Shown here: piece by piece, positions 1-33,365 of the stretch
How the letters are laid out: every line of letters begins with the position of its first letter
Position numbering within the stretch: position 1 is the first letter of the stretch
Source: a virus
Lineage: Duplodnaviria > Heunggongvirae > Uroviricota > Caudoviricetes
Reading direction: 5' to 3' (one strand)
Length of the DNA stretch: 34,582 nt
IMG/VR virus record: IMGVR_UViG_2623620495_000015
Notes under the pieces: generated by a model
Databases searched by the model: none
The model's input: only the letters and a program-made list of their open reading frames with translations
What the model was told of the DNA's origin: nothing
Translations under genes and position numbers: made by a program

Positions 1-237
1 ATGATGGTTAGAAATGAAGTAATGAACCTGGACTGGCACCGCGAGTACATTGTCGCAGCTGTGCACACCAAAGGTTTTACGTTGCGTGAACTGTCTGTTC
101 GCGCTGGTCTAAAAAAAGACTCTTTAAAAAATGCATTGTATCGCTCATGCCCTAAATATGAACGCATCATAGCCGATGCTATTGGTGTGGAACCTGCGGA
201 GATCTGGCCAAGCCGGTATGCCAGTAAGGCGGCGTAA
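1..237 (+). CDS. ner: Ner-like DNA-binding transcriptional regulator
   Basis: 78-aa ORF; C-terminal ...AIGVEPAEIWPSRY resembles Mu Ner (from memory); TAATG overlap with the transposase start. Confidence 0.75.
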   Translation: MMVRNEVMNLDWHREYIVAAVHTKGFTLRELSVRAGLKKDSLKNALYRSCPKYERIIADAIGVEPAEIWPSRYASKAA

Positions 238-8997: not shown

Positions 8998-9016
8998 TTA
9001 AATAATAACCAATAAC

Positions 9017-9040
9017 AGACCAAAACATATGTTTTGGTCT
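9017..9040. repeat. perfect 24-bp palindrome AGACCAAAACATATGTTTTGGTCT, with a third half-site GTTTTGGTC at 9053-9061
   Basis: Read directly from the sequence; lies just upstream of the ATG at 9065. Confidence 0.7.
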
Positions 9041-9064
9041 GCCAAAAGTAGTGTTTTGGTCATT

Positions 9065-9343
9065 ATGAAGATTGAACAAATCGGAATGGCAGCCTTCCGG
9101 CAACAGGCTGAAAGCGGTGGCGTGGATGAGTTCGTCGTGCAGCGGTTCGGTGGTGTATATCACCTCTTCGCTGTGAATCGCCGCGCCGGGGTGTCCTATT
9201 TTCTACAGGAACGCCGTGGCGATTACAAGACGTGGCTGTCTCTTGATCGTGCCGCTGCGTTCCTGTCAGGGATTGGCGTTTCACGTTTTACCGTGCGTTT
9301 TGAGGATAACAAACATGCTGAAAAAGATGATCGGAGCCATTAA
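9065..9343 (+). CDS. hypothetical protein (92 aa)
   Basis: Internal ATG of track ORF 9029..9343; overlaps the gemA start by 29 nt. Confidence 0.4.
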   Translation: MKIEQIGMAAFRQQAESGGVDEFVVQRFGGVYHLFAVNRRAGVSYFLQERRGDYKTWLSLDRAAAFLSGIGVSRFTVRFEDNKHAEKDDRSH

Positions 9344-9713
9344 AGCCGGTCAGGCGTATCTGGGGTGGGATGATGCCCTTTATCGCCAGACGCTGGCCCG
9401 CCTGACAGGTAAAACCAGCACCACTCGCTGCAACCTCGATGAACTGCGCATCATCCGGGAATATATGCACGAACAGGGATTCCCGCGTAAAGCGCCCACC
9501 GGTAAAGGTCGCCGTCCCCGTGTTGCAATGAGCAGAAAATCGGTATTATCAAAAATTGAAGCGTTGCTGGCTGATGCCGGTCGTTCCTGGGGGTATGCGG
9601 AAGGACTGGCATCTCACATGTATAAGCAACATGTGATCGAATGGCTGACGGATGAACAGCTTTTCGGGGTGATGGTGGCGCTGGTTAAAGATTCAAGAAG
9701 GAGGAGTAAATGA
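9315..9713 (+). CDS. gemA: GemA-like protein (Mu gp16 family)
   Basis: ATG with GAGG RBS (track ORF 9216..9713 begins earlier at a non-ATG codon); MLKKMIGAIKAGQAYLGWDDALYRQTLARLTGKTS... matches the Mu gp16/GemA family from memory. Confidence 0.65.
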   Translation: MLKKMIGAIKAGQAYLGWDDALYRQTLARLTGKTSTTRCNLDELRIIREYMHEQGFPRKAPTGKGRRPRVAMSRKSVLSKIEALLADAGRSWGYAEGLASHMYKQHVIEWLTDEQLFGVMVALVKDSRRRSK

Positions 9714-10213
9714 TTAAAAAACGGTATTTTCTTTTAGTGGCGTTCATTTTGTCTTTTCCTGCCGTTGCTGAATGGCACACATGGGTACAAAAAGATGCTT
9801 TTGATGATCAACAAACAGCCATGATGGTGGGTATTGGAACAATGGATTTTGGGATTGCTTTAGACTGTTCGAATGACTCACTATTTGCTGGTATTACAAA
9901 AGAAACAGATAAAGTTAACATTGCGTTATTCGGTTCATCAAAAGATTTAATATTTAGGATAGACGAATTTCCAGCAGTAAAGACCACAGGGGTACTCGCT
10001 GCACGAAATGAAAAAATGTATATCTATAAAATAGAGGACAAACAAAAAATCAAAGAGTTGTTATCTTATCTTCGAAAAGCCCAAAAACGTGTTTTAGCTG
10101 GTGTAAAAGAACCGAGTGAAGAACGAGGCGCATCGTTTAATGTAACACCGACAGGTTCAACAACCGCTGTTAATAAATTTATCAAAGCCTGTAACATTAA
10201 GATTCCAGAGTAA
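9710..10213 (+). CDS. secreted/periplasmic protein of unknown function (167 aa), AT-rich moron
   Basis: Strong RBS GAAGGAGGAG; Sec-type signal peptide MIKKRYFLLVAFILSFPAVA/EW; GC content visibly far below flanking phage genes; own terminator downstream. Confidence 0.6.
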   Translation: MIKKRYFLLVAFILSFPAVAEWHTWVQKDAFDDQQTAMMVGIGTMDFGIALDCSNDSLFAGITKETDKVNIALFGSSKDLIFRIDEFPAVKTTGVLAARNEKMYIYKIEDKQKIKELLSYLRKAQKRVLAGVKEPSEERGASFNVTPTGSTTAVNKFIKACNIKIPE

Positions 10214-10223
10214 CTTAATAGCC

Positions 10224-10249
10224 GCCCCTGCCATGTAGGGGCTTTTTTT
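10224..10249 (+). terminator. intrinsic terminator after the secreted-protein gene
   Basis: GCCCCT (10224-10229), loop GCCATGT, AGGGGC (10237-10242), then T7 run (10243-10249). Confidence 0.6.
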
Positions 10250-10255
10250 GTGGTC

Positions 10256-10283
10256 TGTACAGGCGATCATGTATGGCTATAAT
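10256..10283 (+). promoter_or_regulatory. candidate sigma70 promoter upstream of the Mor/C-family gene
   Basis: -10 TATAAT at 10278-10283; 16-nt spacer; -35-like TGTACA at 10256-10261. Confidence 0.35.
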
Positions 10284-10312
10284 AACAGTAAGTTACTACC
10301 GGAGACGCCATC

Positions 10313-10780
10313 ATGCAGACCTTCAGTGAAACAGATCTTCGCGATGCGCAGGCACTGCTGCCCGATTCCGTGCAGCAACTGATTAGCGTGATTGGCTTCC
10401 CCGCCCTGACCCGGTTGATTCGTTCTTTTGGTGGCGTGACGTTAAGTGGTAAAACCGGCGCACACGCCGAACGCACCGGCGGTGTCCATGCCCTGTTACA
10501 TGACGTGCTGACCGAAGACGAAATCAACAAACTGATCCGCTTTCTTGGCGGTGCTCCGTTTTACATCCCCCGTTGCGATCATGCGTTACGTGCCCTGCGT
10601 AACACCCGTTTTATGGCTGATTTACAGCAGCATGTAAAAGACGGGTGCTCACACCGGCAGGCGCTGGCGCTGCTCTGTCCCCGCTACGGGATTTCAGACC
10701 GGTATGCATGGCAACTGATACACCGACGACAAAAACAGACTTCGCTGAAAAGCCCCACCCAGGTGGGGCTTTTTGATTAA
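10313..10780 (+). CDS. Mor/C-family transcriptional activator
   Basis: 155-aa ORF with GGAG RBS; C-terminal region with FYIPR motif and HTH-like segment resembles Mu Mor/C (memory); sits after gemA as in Mu. Confidence 0.7.
   Translation: MQTFSETDLRDAQALLPDSVQQLISVIGFPALTRLIRSFGGVTLSGKTGAHAERTGGVHALLHDVLTEDEINKLIRFLGGAPFYIPRCDHALRALRNTRFMADLQQHVKDGCSHRQALALLCPRYGISDRYAWQLIHRRQKQTSLKSPTQVGLFD
10751..10775 (+). terminator. intrinsic terminator overlapping the 3' end of the Mor/C-family gene
   Basis: GCCCCAC (10752-10758), loop CCAG, GTGGGGC (10763-10769), then T5. Confidence 0.5.
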
Positions 10781-10807
10781 TGAGACTCAGAAAAAAGGAG
10801 ACACGAA

Positions 10808-11095
10808 ATGATGAGTTCTGACACCAATATCGACTACGCAGCACTCGGTGAATATACCGCATTTTCAGACAAGGCCCGGGATGCAGCCCGTCGCCGACAT
10901 GCTGAGATGTGTAATTTATCCAGTTATCTGGCGAGACAGGCCCAAAGCCCGGAGTCAGAAACGAATCATAATGAAGTGCTGTCAGCCGTAAACAGGATGC
11001 TGGACGCAGAACGGGAAATGCGTAATGCCGTGGAAAGAGCTAACCTGTTGGCGCGGGCATGTTATAAGCCACCATTAAAACTCGCTTCCCTTTAA
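10808..11095 (+). CDS. hypothetical protein (95 aa)
   Basis: Strong RBS AAGGAG 6 nt upstream of ATG; no recognisable domain. Confidence 0.4.
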   Translation: MMSSDTNIDYAALGEYTAFSDKARDAARRRHAEMCNLSSYLARQAQSPESETNHNEVLSAVNRMLDAEREMRNAVERANLLARACYKPPLKLASL

Positions 11096-11122
11096 CCCAT
11101 CCAGATAATCAACCTGCCGGGG

Positions 11123-11135
11123 GTGCTGAACACCC
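11123..11135 (+). promoter_or_regulatory. candidate late-promoter activator site 1 (GTGCTGAACACCC), upstream of the lysis cassette
   Basis: Exact 13-mer also at 18545-18557 and 30503-30515; sites 1 and 2 also share CAGTACCC downstream. Confidence 0.5.
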
Positions 11136-11282
11136 CCAGCAGTACCCACCACACCAGACCGTTTACCCTGTCCACTCAGACCACAAGGCACCTTAAGGGA
11201 TAGCGCCCTGCAAAAGGCTTTTGTGCCTTTGACAGGGTGTTATTTACGGGCCGTCAGTGGCTCAGATTTACAGGAGAAACTC

Positions 11283-11675
11283 ATGTCTGAACCCTTATCA
11301 GGCGGCGGAGCTGTGGCAGTCACCATCGGTGGTGCCAGTGTGTTTGGCCTTCTCACCAATACCGATTTCGGGGTCGTGGTGGGCGCGTTTGCCGGGGCGC
11401 TTTTTGTTGTCACGCAGCAGAAAGAAATCCCGGTCTGGCGAATGGCCATCCACCTGCTCGTCGCGTTTGTGGTTGGCGTTCTGGGGGCTGGCGTGGCTGC
11501 GTCACTGATGCAGTGGCTGACCCACTACAACGACAAGCCGCTAGATGCATTGTGTGCGGTCGGTGTCTCGGCGCTCTCAATCAAGATTCTGACGTTTATT
11601 TATAAACAGGATATTTCATCGCTGTTTGGCCTGTTTTCACGGCTGCGCGGCGGAGGGGGTGAAAATGGTAAGTAG
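11283..11675 (+). CDS. putative holin (130 aa, multi-pass membrane protein)
   Basis: ATG with AGGAG RBS; about three hydrophobic segments; first gene of the lysis cassette. Confidence 0.5.
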   Translation: MSEPLSGGGAVAVTIGGASVFGLLTNTDFGVVVGAFAGALFVVTQQKEIPVWRMAIHLLVAFVVGVLGAGVAASLMQWLTHYNDKPLDALCAVGVSALSIKILTFIYKQDISSLFGLFSRLRGGGGENGK

Positions 11676-11961
11676 CGTTGCCGGCATTGTTAACGTCTGG
11701 CTGTGTGTCGCCATTGTGTTCGGGTTGTTCGTGTACCGCCGTAAAGGGGCTGTTCATAAACCTGCGGTCACCTGGGTGGCGTACTGGCTGATGCTCTGGT
11801 ACGCCATCATCCCGTTCCGCTGGTTGTTTGGTACGTACACCCACTCCAGCTGGCTGGTTGTGGCGCTTAATCTGGTGTTCTGTGCGCTCATCGTGTGGGC
11901 GCACGGGAATTTGTCGAAAATCCTTTCGTTACTGAGGTATCCATATGAAATCAAAAGATGA
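11665..11961 (+). CDS. small membrane protein (98 aa), holin/antiholin-like partner
   Basis: ATG 7 nt after GGAGGG; two to three hydrophobic helices; overlaps neighbours at both ends. Confidence 0.45.
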   Translation: MVSSVAGIVNVWLCVAIVFGLFVYRRKGAVHKPAVTWVAYWLMLWYAIIPFRWLFGTYTHSSWLVVALNLVFCALIVWAHGNLSKILSLLRYPYEIKR

Positions 11962-12490
11962 AATCTTTGACAGCGTTCTGGGTAAAGAAGGCGGTTACGT
12001 CAATCACCCGGATGATAAAGGTGGCCCGACCAAATGGGGAATTACGGAAAAAGTCGCCCGCGCTCACGGATACCGTGGCGATATGCGCGATCTAACCCGC
12101 GAACAGGCGCTGGACATCCTTGAAGCCGATTACTGGTATGGCCCGCGATTTGACCAGGTCGCCGCGTTATCCTCTGATATTGCCGCAGAGCTGTGTGATA
12201 CCGGTGTGAATATGGGGCCAACCGTGGCGTCCAGAATGCTTCAGCGCTGGCTGAATGTGTTCAATCTGCGCGGCAGGATGTATCCCGATATGGATGCAGA
12301 CGGGCGCATCGGGCCTCGTACTATCAGTGCATTGCGCGCCTTCCTGAATTATCGCGGTCAGGACGGCGAACGGGTGATGCTGAAGGCCCTGAACTGCACG
12401 CAGGGTGAGCGCTATCTGGAACTGGCAGAGAAACGCGAAGCCAACGAATCGTTTGTTTATGGCTGGCTGGAGGAGCGCGTGGCGGTATGA
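11945..12490 (+). CDS. endolysin, glycoside hydrolase family 108-like with C-terminal peptidoglycan-binding region
   Basis: N-terminal EGGYVNHPDDKGGPTKWGIT is the hallmark GH108 motif (TtsA-like muramidases). Confidence 0.8.
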   Translation: MKSKDEIFDSVLGKEGGYVNHPDDKGGPTKWGITEKVARAHGYRGDMRDLTREQALDILEADYWYGPRFDQVAALSSDIAAELCDTGVNMGPTVASRMLQRWLNVFNLRGRMYPDMDADGRIGPRTISALRAFLNYRGQDGERVMLKALNCTQGERYLELAEKREANESFVYGWLEERVAV

Positions 12491-12669
12491 CGCGTCAGCA
12501 CTGGACCCACAGAACGCCACGTAAAGCCGCGCGCTGTGTTCTGGCCCTGTTTCTGGTGATGTTGCTTCCGGTGGGATGCACAGACATTAACAGAGCGGGC
12601 CAGCTGTTTGACGCGGCGGCGCAGGTCTGCCGGATTATTGACGGTATCCGGCAGTGTTCGCAGAACTGA
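12487..12669 (+). CDS. small putative lipoprotein (60 aa), possible spanin-like lysis accessory
   Basis: ATGA overlap with the endolysin stop; signal-like N-terminus ending LLPVGC (non-canonical lipobox); three Cys in the mature part. Confidence 0.3.
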   Translation: MTRQHWTHRTPRKAARCVLALFLVMLLPVGCTDINRAGQLFDAAAQVCRIIDGIRQCSQN

Positions 12670-13396: not shown

Positions 13397-13430
13397 CCAC
13401 AGCGGCCCGGTTTTCCGGGCCGTCTGATAT

Positions 13431-18506: not shown

Positions 18507-18544
18507 GTTTTATTTCCCCTTTTATCCTTTCCCGTTATGGCAGG

Positions 18545-18557
18545 GTGCTGAACACCC
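18545..18557 (+). promoter_or_regulatory. candidate late-promoter activator site 2 (GTGCTGAACACCC), upstream of the head protease/scaffold gene
   Basis: Exact 13-mer; followed by TCCACAGTACCCC, resembling site 1. Confidence 0.5.
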
Positions 18558-18589
18558 TCCACAGTACCCCGTGTTCCCCTTCCGTCATC

Positions 18590-19714
18590 ATGCCGCGTAT
18601 GAAGATGAACATTGCGGCATTAAGCCTCGAAATTACTAAAGCAACCCACAGCGAAATCCAGCTGTTTCCGGCGGGCGAGTTCAGCGCGGTGGATGGTCGC
18701 CCACATACCGATGAAGTCGAAAGCGGTAAATGGGTGCTGACCGCTGAACTGGCCGCGCAGCTTGTCGCGCAGGTGGCCGCCCGTACCACGCCTTTTGTCA
18801 TTGATTACGAACATCAGACGCTGCGCGCCGTAAACAACGGCAAGCCCGCCCCGGCGGCGGGCTGGTTCAGCCAGGTGGAATGGCGTGAAGGTGTGGGCCT
18901 GTATGCCACCGGTGTGGAGTGGACGGAGAACGCGGCGGCCATGATTGCCGCCGGTGAGTACAAATTTATTTCCCCTGTTTTTGCCTACAACAAGCGCGGC
19001 GAAGTGCTGGAGCTGTTACACGCTGCGCTGACCAATACCCCGGCGCTCGACGGTATGGACGCGGTCATGCTGGCTGCGGCCAGCCGTCTGGCGAGTCTGT
19101 CAACTGAAACGGAGACCACAACAGTGGATGAAGAACTGTTAAACGATTTGCTGTCCAGTCTGCGCTGGACGCTGAACCTCCCGGCAACCTCAACGCCGGA
19201 AGACATTAAAAATGAGCTGCAAAAAATTGTTGATGCCATCTCCGGCGGCAAAGGAACGGCAGCGGCTTCTGTTGGTCTGCTGGCCCTGCTGAATCAGAAA
19301 GACGAGCAAATCGCCAGCCTGTCAGCAAATGCTTATGACCCGTCAAAACACATTTCCCTTGCTGCCTTTGAAGAACTTCAGGGGCGTTATGCCGCACTGG
19401 CGCAACAGTCCGGTGAGGCCGAAGCCGGGGCACTGATTCAGGCGGCGCTGTCTGACGGGCGACTGCTTCCGGCGCAGGAAGACTGGGCGAAAGATTACGC
19501 CAGCCGCGATATCAACGGCTTTAAGTCCTGGCTGGAGAACGCGCCGAAACTTGTTGCGCTCAGTCAGACCCAGACCGGCGGCAAGCCACCCAAAACGCCG
19601 TCGCCTGCCCCGGCGCAGATTAAAACCGGCGATGACGTCGATGTCGATATCGCCATTTGTTCCATGATGGGCGTTGATCCAGAGGATGTCGCCCGTTACG
19701 CAGGAGATGAGTAA
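18590..19714 (+). CDS. head maturation protease/scaffold (Mu I/gp32-like)
   Basis: About 375 aa; N-terminus NIAALSLEITKATHSEIQLFPAGEF typical of Mu I-family proteases (memory); ATG choice among 18590/18599/18605 uncertain. Confidence 0.7.
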   Translation: MPRMKMNIAALSLEITKATHSEIQLFPAGEFSAVDGRPHTDEVESGKWVLTAELAAQLVAQVAARTTPFVIDYEHQTLRAVNNGKPAPAAGWFSQVEWREGVGLYATGVEWTENAAAMIAAGEYKFISPVFAYNKRGEVLELLHAALTNTPALDGMDAVMLAAASRLASLSTETETTTVDEELLNDLLSSLRWTLNLPATSTPEDIKNELQKIVDAISGGKGTAAASVGLLALLNQKDEQIASLSANAYDPSKHISLAAFEELQGRYAALAQQSGEAEAGALIQAALSDGRLLPAQEDWAKDYASRDINGFKSWLENAPKLVALSQTQTGGKPPKTPSPAPAQIKTGDDVDVDIAICSMMGVDPEDVARYAGDE

Positions 19715-21032: not shown

Positions 21033-21374
21033 ATGGAAAAGGTGATTGAAATTACCGCCCGCCGTGAGGGTTTTCGCCGCTGCGGTGTGGCACACAGCGC
21101 AACCACGAAGGAATGGCCTGCGGATGCGTTCACCCCGGAACAGCTGGCGGTGCTGAAGGCTGACCCCATGCTGATTGTGGTGGAGCGCGATAAAGCGTCC
21201 GGCCAGAACGACGCGGCCCGGGGTGATGAGCTGGCCGCACAGCTGGATGCCGAGCGTCAGAAAGTCAGCGAACTGACGGCGCAACTGGAAGAAGAACGCC
21301 AGAAAGTCAGTGAACTGACCGCACAGCTGAACGCCGCACAGAAAACAAAAAAAGCGGACAAAAAGGAGAAGTAA
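21033..21374 (+). CDS. Mu gp35-like protein with internal tandem repeat
   Basis: 113 aa; position matches Mu gp35; contains 2 x 42-bp repeat encoding ERQKVSELTAQL. Confidence 0.5.
   Translation: MEKVIEITARREGFRRCGVAHSATTKEWPADAFTPEQLAVLKADPMLIVVERDKASGQNDAARGDELAAQLDAERQKVSELTAQLEEERQKVSELTAQLNAAQKTKKADKKEK
21252..21335 (+). repeat. tandem 42-bp in-frame repeat (2 copies) inside the gp35-like gene
   Basis: Copies differ at several mostly synonymous positions. Confidence 0.8.
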
Positions 21375-30502: not shown

Positions 30503-30515
30503 GTGCTGAACACCC
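30503..30515 (+). promoter_or_regulatory. candidate late-promoter activator site 3 (GTGCTGAACACCC), between gp45-like and gp46-like genes
   Basis: Exact 13-mer starting 1 nt after the gp45 stop, about 40 nt upstream of the gp46 ATG. Confidence 0.45.
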
Positions 30516-30555
30516 TCACCTGATTCTGACCTGTCCATGCTGCCAGACTGGCGGC

Positions 30556-30906
30556 ATGGACCAGACGATTTCACCTGCAACCGGCGACTACGAACGCCGC
30601 CGGATTTATACACTCCATAACGCGGTTTATCTGCGACTGGCGACACCGCTTGGCAGTTACTGGGCGGATGCGTCGCTGGGGTCACGCCTGCACGAACTGA
30701 AGCGGAAAAAAGACGTTTCCCGTGTTCACAGGCTGGCGGCGCAGTATGCCAGCCAGGCACTTCAGCCCCTGCTTGATGACGGGCGGGCAAAATCCATTAC
30801 CGTTGACACGAAAGCGGGCCAGCGCGGCTGGCTGTTGCTGTTAATCACCGTCACGGATAACGCGGGCACACCGCAGACGTTTGAACACCCTGTGAGGATT
30901 ATGTAA
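30556..30906 (+). CDS. baseplate protein (Mu gp46-like)
   Basis: 116-aa ORF; position and recalled similarity to the GP46 family. Confidence 0.65.
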   Translation: MDQTISPATGDYERRRIYTLHNAVYLRLATPLGSYWADASLGSRLHELKRKKDVSRVHRLAAQYASQALQPLLDDGRAKSITVDTKAGQRGWLLLLITVTDNAGTPQTFEHPVRIM

Positions 30907-32562: not shown

Positions 32563-33365
32563 TGCGGAATTTAATGCCCCCGGTGAATACGCCGGATAAG
32601 TTATTTCATGACGGTGACCCGACTCAGGGAATTGAGGGAACCATCGTTACTGCTGAATTTATGAATAATCATCAGGCAGCGACGCGTGATTTGCAGCAGG
32701 AGGTGATTAACGTTCTTAAGGAGGCTGGCGTCACCCCGGACCCGGAAAAACAAAACCAGCTGGTTGAGGCGCTGACCTCGTTTATTGGCCAGAAAGTCCC
32801 GGATGCATCGCTGACGCAAAAAGGCGTGGTACAGCTTAACAGCGCTGTTAACAGTGAATCAGAAACAGAAGCTGCCACACCAAAAGCGGTCAAGATTGCG
32901 ATGGATAACGCAAACGCCAGGCTCGCAAAAGACCGTAACGGCGCAGACATCCCGAATAAACAATTGTTTCTGGATAACATCGGCGGTGCGCCGAAAACGC
33001 GCAAAATTAACAATATGCCCCTGACGTCGGATATCACCATCAACAACATCGGCGGCAATGCCGGAACGGCAACCCGGCTTCAGACGGCCCGCAGGATTAA
33101 CAATGTGCTGTTTGATGGCTCCAGAGATATCACCATCAGCAGCACCGATTCTGGTGCAGTACGTGATTTCAGATACACCAGCGAAGTGTTTCACAATCCC
33201 GGTGGTAACCAAATTTCCTGGGTATTCCGCGCGCCTTCAGGGTGTATTTTGTCAGGTATTAACGTTCAGGAAACTGGCAAAAGCTCTGCGGATAACATCG
33301 GGGGTGTGTATTACAAACAAACTCAGATTTATATCAATGGCGGATGGCGCACGGTATCCGGCTAA
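32562..33365 (+). CDS. tail fibre protein (Mu S/gp49 position), short form
   Basis: 267 aa; KGVVQLNSAVNSESETEAATPKAVKIAMDNAN matches the conserved motif of lambda Stf / P2 H-type fibres (memory). Confidence 0.7.
   Translation: MRNLMPPVNTPDKLFHDGDPTQGIEGTIVTAEFMNNHQAATRDLQQEVINVLKEAGVTPDPEKQNQLVEALTSFIGQKVPDASLTQKGVVQLNSAVNSESETEAATPKAVKIAMDNANARLAKDRNGADIPNKQLFLDNIGGAPKTRKINNMPLTSDITINNIGGNAGTATRLQTARRINNVLFDGSRDITISSTDSGAVRDFRYTSEVFHNPGGNQISWVFRAPSGCILSGINVQETGKSSADNIGGVYYKQTQIYINGGWRTVSG

Follow-up and report, generated by a model that had tools for sequence, protein, structure and literature searches.

The window analysed here is the whole 34,582-nucleotide stretch of IMG/VR virus record IMGVR_UViG_2623620495_000015 (Caudoviricetes), a Mu-like transposable prophage of Escherichia coli. 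Our subject is the segment at positions 10,256 to 11,095, where a gene of the Mor/C activator family (10313..10780) stands between the early genes and the lysis genes. Phage Mu provides the textbook activator relay, with Mor acting first and C after it. In the window we find a single member of this family, and we propose, at a probability of roughly 0.6, a two-tier lytic cascade in which one Mor/C-family activator takes the place of the Mor-then-C relay. A simplified cascade had been among the options offered by the initial annotation of this DNA, and it is this option that gains from the data: the window and a complete related prophage (L004) each have a single Mor/C gene, and the candidate late promoters carry a common dyad which the activator's own promoter does not. 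The features on which the argument turns all lie on the + strand and are as follows.

10224..10249, + strand: T1, a predicted terminator with an 8-bp G+C-rich hairpin and seven T (terminator scan, fold, relatives)
10255..10283, + strand: P_mor, a putative sigma-70-type promoter block (10 of 12 hexamer positions matched; conserved)
10313..10780, + strand: Mor/C-family activator gene, 155 aa (Pfam Mor and PHROG 836), preceded by GGAG at 10301-10304
10747..10774, + strand: T2, a predicted terminator inside the last ten activator codons (fold, compensatory pairs)
10808..11095, + strand: gene for a 95-aa helical-hairpin protein (PHROG 7152), with ribosome-binding site AAGGAG at 10795-10800, 7 nt before the ATG
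11121..11169, + strand: candidate lysis-operon promoter, with dyad GGGTGCTGAACACCC at 11121-11135, -10-like TACCCT at 11164-11169 and no -35
18543..18591, + strand: candidate head-operon promoter in a Mu PI-like position, with the dyad at 18543-18557 and -10-like CATCAT at 18586-18591
30503..30549, + strand: candidate baseplate/tail-operon promoter, with the motif at 30503-30515 and -10-like CAGACT at 30544-30549

Membership of 10313..10780 in the Mor/C family was demonstrated in several ways. The product matches Pfam Mor (PF08765) at E 1.1e-6 and 29.1 bits, against a cut-off of 24.9, and PHROG 836, 'late transcriptional activator', at 1.2e-42, and PGAP labels the gene 'Mor transcription activator family protein'. 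When a profile of the activator's subfamily was searched against PDB sequences, the sole significant matches were to Mu C (9l0x, 7.8e-6) and Mu Mor (1rr7, 3.8e-3), in an alignment spanning the GG..YIPR linker, the helix-turn-helix (HTH) and the C-terminal LF. In the beta-strand linker (LGG..xYIPR) the window's FLGGAPFYIPRCDHALRALRN aligns to FLGGRQFYIPCGDTILTALRD of Mu C, and the AlphaFold (AF2) model of the 155-aa protein places a strand at residues 83-84 and helices at 89-109, 114-125 and 129-145. The linker and the basic C-terminal HTH that mark the family are thus both present, as is the Q..LF that ends Mu Mor and C. Identity to the two Mu proteins is nevertheless 18-28%, and the window protein differs from them by an insertion of about 30 residues after the N-terminal helices and by another in the HTH region. 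The activator also has two alike G-G beta-strand motifs, FGGVTLS and LGGAPFYIP (residues 39-45 and 78-86), of which the former sits in the insertion of about 30 residues not present in Mu Mor/C; their likeness may reflect duplication, within the protein, of the beta-linker that contacts DNA.

The number of such genes was assessed by phmmer and hmmsearch, using Mu Mor, Mu C, the window protein and two family profiles as queries against six-frame segments of at least 30 aa. In the window these searches match 10313..10780 alone, with a next best E of 0.05 or more, and a second activator hidden in the window was accordingly rejected. The family profile finds two genes in Mu, both of which belong to its training set, and recovers both copies in each of four prophages (L020, L021, L024 and L026) that were not used to build it. 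The same profile finds one gene in SuMu and one in L004, a prophage 95% identical to the window that is complete from repressor to tail fibres with host genes on both sides, and for which PGAP likewise annotates a single Mor protein. With tblastn, each of 134 phage records was matched at one place. Two paralogous activators per genome, as in the Mor-then-C cascade of Mu, are therefore found in neither the window nor L004. The initial annotation was right to recognise one homologue but not to treat this as unusual. Niu et al. describe SuMu, 3927AP2 and phiMhaMu2 as having lys immediately after mor and no C (PMC4553209), and a single Mor is assigned in D3112-like Pseudomonas phages (PMC4378225) and in KS10 (PMC2628397). 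Because it has been reported for SuMu and the Mannheimia phages, the one-activator layout is not new in itself.

A candidate target shared by the late operons is the 13-mer GTGCTGAACACCC, present in the window as three exact copies, all on the + strand (11123-11135, 18545-18557 and 30503-30515). The copies stand between the 95-aa gene and the holins, before the head protease gene, and just 5' of the gp46-like baseplate gene 30556..30906, respectively. In two of them the 13-mer is the core of a dyad, GGGTG-CTGAA-CACCC, and in all three a -10-like hexamer, its second base A and its sixth T, begins 38 nt past the C of CTGAAC. This arrangement, CTGAACnCC with a -10-like hexamer at +38, recurs upstream of the lysis genes in more than ten prophages of other genera that possess the same activator subfamily, including Xenorhabdus, Photorhabdus, Morganella, Yersinia, Kosakonia, Trabulsiella, Intestinirhabdus and Buttiauxella, plus a locus labelled Martelella, where the hexamers are TACACT, TATACT, AATACT, CACAAT and GATACT. 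The site bound by Mu Mor consists of two inverted 5-bp repeats with their centre at -43.5, in a promoter with a -10 and no -35 (PMC4390567), and in cryo-electron microscopy structures Mor and C contact the RNA polymerase alpha subunit's C-terminal domain and sigma region 4 (bioRxiv 10.1101/2025.05.02.651988). Given this dyad binding, these contacts and the recurrence at lysis genes, we read the motif as the activator's site, and by analogy with Mu the three dyad sites are probably activator-dependent late promoters. TGAACA within the motif was tried as a -35 and rejected, since none of the three sites is followed by a -10-like hexamer at a distance of 16-18 bp. A second repeated motif, CGGGCCGTC[A/T]G, also has three exact copies, at 11247-11257 (+), 13416-13426 (+) and 33081-33091 (-), that at 13416 overlapping GGCCCGG-TTTT-CCGGGCC, an inverted repeat situated between the DUF1804 gene and terL. 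As a common promoter element this motif (CGGGCCGTCWG) was dropped in favour of GTGCTGAACACCC, because it has those three exact copies only and their contexts are inconsistent.

The activator gene is bracketed by two hairpins. T1, with the sequence GCCCCTGC-CAT-GTAGGGGC followed by seven T, folds at -14.9 kcal/mol and closes the early operon, which ends in gemA and a cargo gene, just 5' of the putative activator promoter; in relatives its stem occurs in five unrelated sequence versions, each of -15 to -18 kcal/mol and each with a T-run. The core of T2 (10752-10774) is composed of GCCCCAC (10752-10758), a CCAG loop, GTGGGGC (10763-10769) and five T (10770-10774), and the extended stem over 10747-10774 folds at -20.6 kcal/mol with a z-score of -3.9. 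It occupies the gene's final ten codons (K S P T Q V G L F D), with the stop codon 3 nt past the T-run, such that CAG GTG GGG CTT TTT both encodes the QVGLF motif and forms the 3' arm and U-tract. Relatives have stems of GCCCCAC/GTGGGGC, GCCCCGT/ACGGGGC or GCCCCGC/GCGGGGC, and the folds of relatives reach -21.2 and -17.6 kcal/mol. These changes swap residues too, giving PTQVG, PVQTG and PAQAG (T..V, V..T and A..A). Across six sequences 42 of 42 cells are paired, with two pairs changed on both sides, and the pairing collapses when the partner is slid. These compensatory changes and this collapse argue that an RNA hairpin has been selected within the coding sequence. The terminator scan does not list T2, probably because its A-tract/T-tract extension consumes the T-run, and Rfam searches around T2 and in the spacer 11096-11282 gave sub-threshold matches only, to terminator parts of small RNA models. 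T1 and T2 each combine a G+C-rich hairpin with a directly following U-tract and are kept in relatives, and both are predicted intrinsic terminators. Of the pair of flanking terminators first described, the upstream one stands as drawn, on scan and fold; the downstream hairpin is real but lies inside the coding sequence and not beyond the gene.

Between T1 and the activator gene lies P_mor, the top promoter-like site of the region, with TGTACA (10256-10261), a 16-bp spacer and TATAAT (10278-10283), the sole TATAAT on either strand of the 34.6-kb window. Its -35-like hexamer is contained in the palindrome CTGTACAG, and its spacer holds GATC at 10265-10268. The region upstream of mor was aligned for seven loci: the window, three E. 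coli prophages, L009, L012 (a more distant locus) and L018, a contig of Edwardsiella hoshinae. The window activator shares 56% identity with that of L012 and 54% with that of L018. Throughout, CTGTACAGG, GATCA and TGGyTATAAT are invariant, while the T1 stems and the 5' untranslated region are rewritten, and the P_mor sequence is thus unchanged among otherwise divergent prophages. The CTGAAC activator motif was not found 38 nt upstream of the P_mor -10. P_mor, with its TGTACA-16-TATAAT, is therefore not an activator-dependent, -35-less middle promoter of the sort that serves the late activator gene in the Mu cascade. The spacer GATC, a Dam site, is itself invariant in all seven aligned relatives, and GATC occurs within and just past the terminator preceding mor in L005.

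The reading we favour can be set out as a series of steps. Early transcription would halt at T1, past gemA and the cargo gene, leaving the activator as a stand-alone cassette with its own sigma-70-type promoter, a 155-aa ORF (open reading frame) and T2 in its final codons. By analogy to Mu Mor and C, an activator oligomer would bind GGGTG-CTGAA-CACCC about 50 bp upstream of the starts of three -35-less promoters and recruit sigma-70 RNA polymerase for the lysis, head and baseplate operons. Acting at the late promoters itself, it would perform the job of Mu C directly, the Mor step being absent. T2 would block transcripts from the activator promoter from entering the lysis genes, which would therefore rely on the activator-dependent promoter at 11121-11169, and the 95-aa gene, situated between T2 and that promoter, would be reached solely by T2 read-through. 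Since T2 is in translated codons, we infer that a close-following ribosome could mask it and so allow read-through into the 95-aa gene.

A further parallel with Mu concerns the activator C-terminus, QVGLFD (window 10760-10777), which resembles a clamp-binding motif and in which Q150, L153 and F154 are almost invariant across the subfamily. Ho and Harshey report that the beta clamp is needed for Mu late transcription and that Mu C requires two clamp-binding motifs, QHDLF and QPDLF; the C-terminal consensus of the Mor/C family is given as QPDLF and the general clamp consensus as QL[SD]LF (PMC12867686). By analogy, the QxGLF of the window protein probably binds the beta clamp and ties late transcription to replication in the manner of Mu C, although, unlike Mu C, the window protein has no N-terminal motif of this kind. 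A terminator overlapping the codons of a putative clamp motif is a neat case of dual coding.

The remaining element of the locus is the 95-aa gene, 10808..11095, described at the outset as having a strong ribosome-binding site and no obvious HTH, and both points hold, with AAGGAG 7 nt from the ATG and an AF2 model without an HTH. The model is an antiparallel two-helix hairpin (residues 10-46 and 54-85) with a predicted local distance difference test score of 83, and a Foldseek comparison to the PDB returned generic coiled-coil hairpins only, at E > 0.2. No match was found in Pfam, NCBIfam or PADLOC, and PHROG 7152, to which the protein belongs, has no function assigned there. An exhaustive profile search gave 38 representatives at 50% identity, nearly all of 88-126 aa, with an N-terminal NYxALGEY and RAN.AA.LCG near the C-terminus. 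The thought that this might be a divergent second activator fails on every comparison: hhalign of a 30-sequence 95-aa family against a 19-sequence Mor subfamily gave a probability of 0.06%, the E against a Mu Mor+C profile was 3.7, and Pfam, NCBIfam, the PDB sequence search and the fold all rule out a Mor/C relative. Compared with Mor and C by profile, then, 10313..10780 is a family member, whereas neither profile nor fold makes 10808..11095 a homologue.

The other suggestion, that the 95-aa protein is a co-factor, has fared unevenly. In every readable context the gene adjoins mor, lying 3' of it in the window, L004, L009, L012, L018 and L007/L008 and between gemA and mor in L005/L006, and it stays with mor while the lysis cassette switches among GH108, Phage_lysozyme and GH19 types. 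On the other hand, about 20 prophages with the same activator subfamily have no 95-aa gene, no homologue was found in Mu, SuMu or the fetched part of Klebsiella phage locus L001, and the flanks of mor often hold unrelated secreted-protein genes. Since most single-activator relatives are without it, the 95-aa protein is at most an optional partner, and the adjacency may partly reflect a cargo slot. We think it doubtful, and offer it as speculation, that the family is an unrecognised regulatory partner of the Mor module, either targeting the terminators on each side of mor, as antiterminator or modulator, or binding RNA polymerase or the activator as a co-factor; it would then provide in this lineage, non-homologously, the timing step of Mu's second activator.

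A number of points weigh against our reading. By its sequence P_mor is statistically ordinary, with 3 such sites against 3.2 expected in 3.5 kb and, in the window, 2 sites of at least 10/12 against 2.8 expected. A near-consensus sigma-70 promoter before a late activator should also be harmful in a lysogen, and repressor-operator repeats of the L004 type (TTTAAAC) are absent around P_mor. At the late promoters the assigned -10 hexamers (TACCCT, CATCAT and CAGACT) are weak and would put the dyad centre near -48, against -43.5 in Mu. Finally, in the relatives L017, L023 and L025, which have the same activator type, mor comes straight behind gemA without a terminator, so an insulated cassette is not needed for activator function.

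In an unlikely alternative, mor expression follows the pattern of Mu and the gemA-mor phages and starts at the early promoter, whose transcripts would partly read through T1, with TGTACA-16-TATAAT a weak, feedback or otherwise constrained element and T1 and T2 serving as dosage attenuators. It requires no extra mechanism of repression in the lysogen. It also agrees with the nearest activator relatives, the same L017, L023 and L025, where mor follows or overlaps gemA without terminator or promoter, and with L005, where some 18 nt separate the terminator's end from the start of mor, leaving no room for a promoter. The T1 hairpins are, however, strong, with 6-7 T, and the hexamer blocks and their spacing are invariant in the window, E. 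coli, L012 and Edwardsiella, whose activators are about 54-56% identical, while the neighbouring T1 stems and 5' untranslated region are rewritten. A block that is invariant amid rewritten flanks is hard to explain without function, and on this comparative conservation we count both the chance-level promoter-like site and the hairpins as real features. The initial description of a TATAAT with a reasonable -35 is thus accurate as to its presence and its conservation in seven loci; by sequence alone the site is at chance level.

The need to explain the silence of P_mor in a lysogen also lends something to a three-tier cascade in which a non-homologous factor takes the first step, an early or mor-linked protein (the 95-aa protein being the prime candidate, with GemA another) activating or antiterminating mor. 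In its favour are the company that the 95-aa gene keeps with mor on either side, as GemA-95aa-terminator-Mor in L005/L006 and Mor-95aa elsewhere, the retention of this company through lysis-cassette exchange, and its co-occurrence in enterobacterial loci with the insulated mor cassette (window, L002, L009, L012, L018, L045 and L046); in L005 a terminator stands directly between the 95-aa gene and mor. The 95-aa protein has no DNA-binding fold, however, and in the window it cannot act before mor is expressed, because its gene lies downstream of mor and T2. L007/8 have the gene and no terminator around mor, some 20 relatives of the same subfamily do without it, and the mor region is a cargo slot with unrelated secreted-protein genes, such that adjacency may be positional only. 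We judge this rather improbable. A much smaller chance still attaches to a second Mor/C-type activator having been missed, as too divergent or as lying outside the window, which starts at the ner-like gene and so excludes the left end. Two subfamily genes about 0.6 kb apart are indeed present in four related prophages (Xenorhabdus, Photorhabdus and two Morganella), but the profile that recovers both genes there and in Mu gives one match in the complete L004, and among ten early window ORFs Pfam finds a Ner-like HTH_35 regulator and DUFs only, with no further regulator domain.

On the two-tier cascade that we prefer, the question posed is what silences the near-consensus promoter of a lethal activator in a lysogen. 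Candidate controls are the spacer GATC (Dam and hemimethylation after replication), supercoiling sensitivity of the 16-bp spacer, an early protein and the 95-aa protein. Repressor control was considered and rejected, as operator-type repeats like those of L004 are absent nearby and the palindrome CTGTACAG is unrepeated in the window, while the one additional copy that L004 contains is at chance level.

Comparison with known systems places the window among several ways of wiring one activator family. As with C in Mu, the window's activator gene is just upstream of the lysis genes, and its presumed targets, -35-less promoters with an upstream dyad before the lysis, head and baseplate operons, are comparable in position to Mu Plys, PI and PP. 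Differences are that the window has one gene where Mu has two, that its dyad has a 5-bp spacer against 6 bp in Mu and a different sequence, and that the promoter ahead of the activator gene, unlike Mu Pm, has a -35-like hexamer and no activator site. SuMu, the Mannheimia phages, the D3112-like phages and KS10 are like the window in having one Mor-family gene placed between gemA and the genes for lysis or head; the window activator is 30-34% identical to the SuMu and D3112-group proteins. From SuMu-type phages the window differs in the conserved terminator that sets mor apart from the early operon, in the conserved putative promoter that mor has to itself, in the embedded T2 and in the 95-aa gene that comes after mor.

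The two-copy prophages are Xenorhabdus ehlersii L020, Photorhabdus cinerea L021 and Morganella morganii L024 and L026. There an early copy directly follows gemA and the second is lysis-proximal, and the window activator is 49-54% identical to the lysis-proximal copy as against 35-37% to the early one. The CTGAACnCC core and the -10 spacing are the same in these prophages as in the window, whereas the second copy appears to be driven by a CTGAAC-motif promoter (AATACT) and not by a sigma-70-type -35/-10 pair. The two activator genes (L020 2422-3959, L021 2405-3950, L024 2434-3956, and L026) are parted by a secreted-protein gene. The predicted start of the second-copy transcript lies in the 5' arm of a hairpin with a T-run, just before the ribosome-binding site; because of this position, only read-through transcripts from upstream would terminate there.

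The number and wiring of Mor/C activators are thus evolutionarily labile, and the window is a further one-activator Mu-like member with a variant layout, comprising a terminator-bounded cassette, a terminator over the clamp-motif codons and a 95-aa companion. The same activator subfamily occurs in three layouts, within the early operon, as early and late duplicates, or as a terminator-bounded cassette with an ordinary-looking promoter, which together offer a small natural series for studying the timing of late genes by one activator in a temperate transposable phage. Current understanding is not overturned, and the practical value is mainly in better annotation of Mu-like prophages and their late promoters.

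Three further genes define the early side of the locus.

1..237, + strand: Ner-like HTH gene (HTH_35, Pfam)
9318..9713, + strand: gemA (ORF and domain reading of the window)
9710..10213, between gemA and T1: gene for a 167-aa protein with a signal-peptide-like N-terminus (PHROG 19473, no Pfam)

All long ORFs of the window are on the + strand, in the order of a Mu-like transposable prophage: the Ner-like gene, transposase A and B, small early genes, GemA, the Mor-family gene, a lysis block of two holins and a GH108 endolysin, then a DUF1804 gene, terminase, portal, and head and contractile-tail genes. Prophages 84-98% identical over 9000-12500 or 10200-11300 are found in dozens of complete E. 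coli genomes, including that of the enteropathogenic strain E2348/69, for which a literature search found no Mu-like prophage described. As the window's first base is that of the ATG of the Ner-like gene (1-237), the repressor gene and operators of this prophage lie outside the window; in L004 they are located about 250-800 bp further left than the Ner-like gene. The closest E. coli relatives (L002/L004) are without the 167-aa gene and pass from gemA directly to T1, so this gene is cargo inserted upstream of T1, and the same slot is filled by other genes in L009, L045 and L046, as would be expected of a cargo ('moron') position. Downstream, the holin leader contains, at 11198-11245, a hairpin of very high stability (-29.1 kcal/mol, z -6.1). 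Positions 11200-11300, which include most of it, are 74-80% identical to sequence lying upstream of 'putative holin' genes in some 160 further E. coli genomes, and this stretch belongs to a mobile lysis-cassette module. Within a small head-region ORF, positions 21228-21353 hold three tandem 42-nt coding repeats resembling ELAAQLDAERQKVS.

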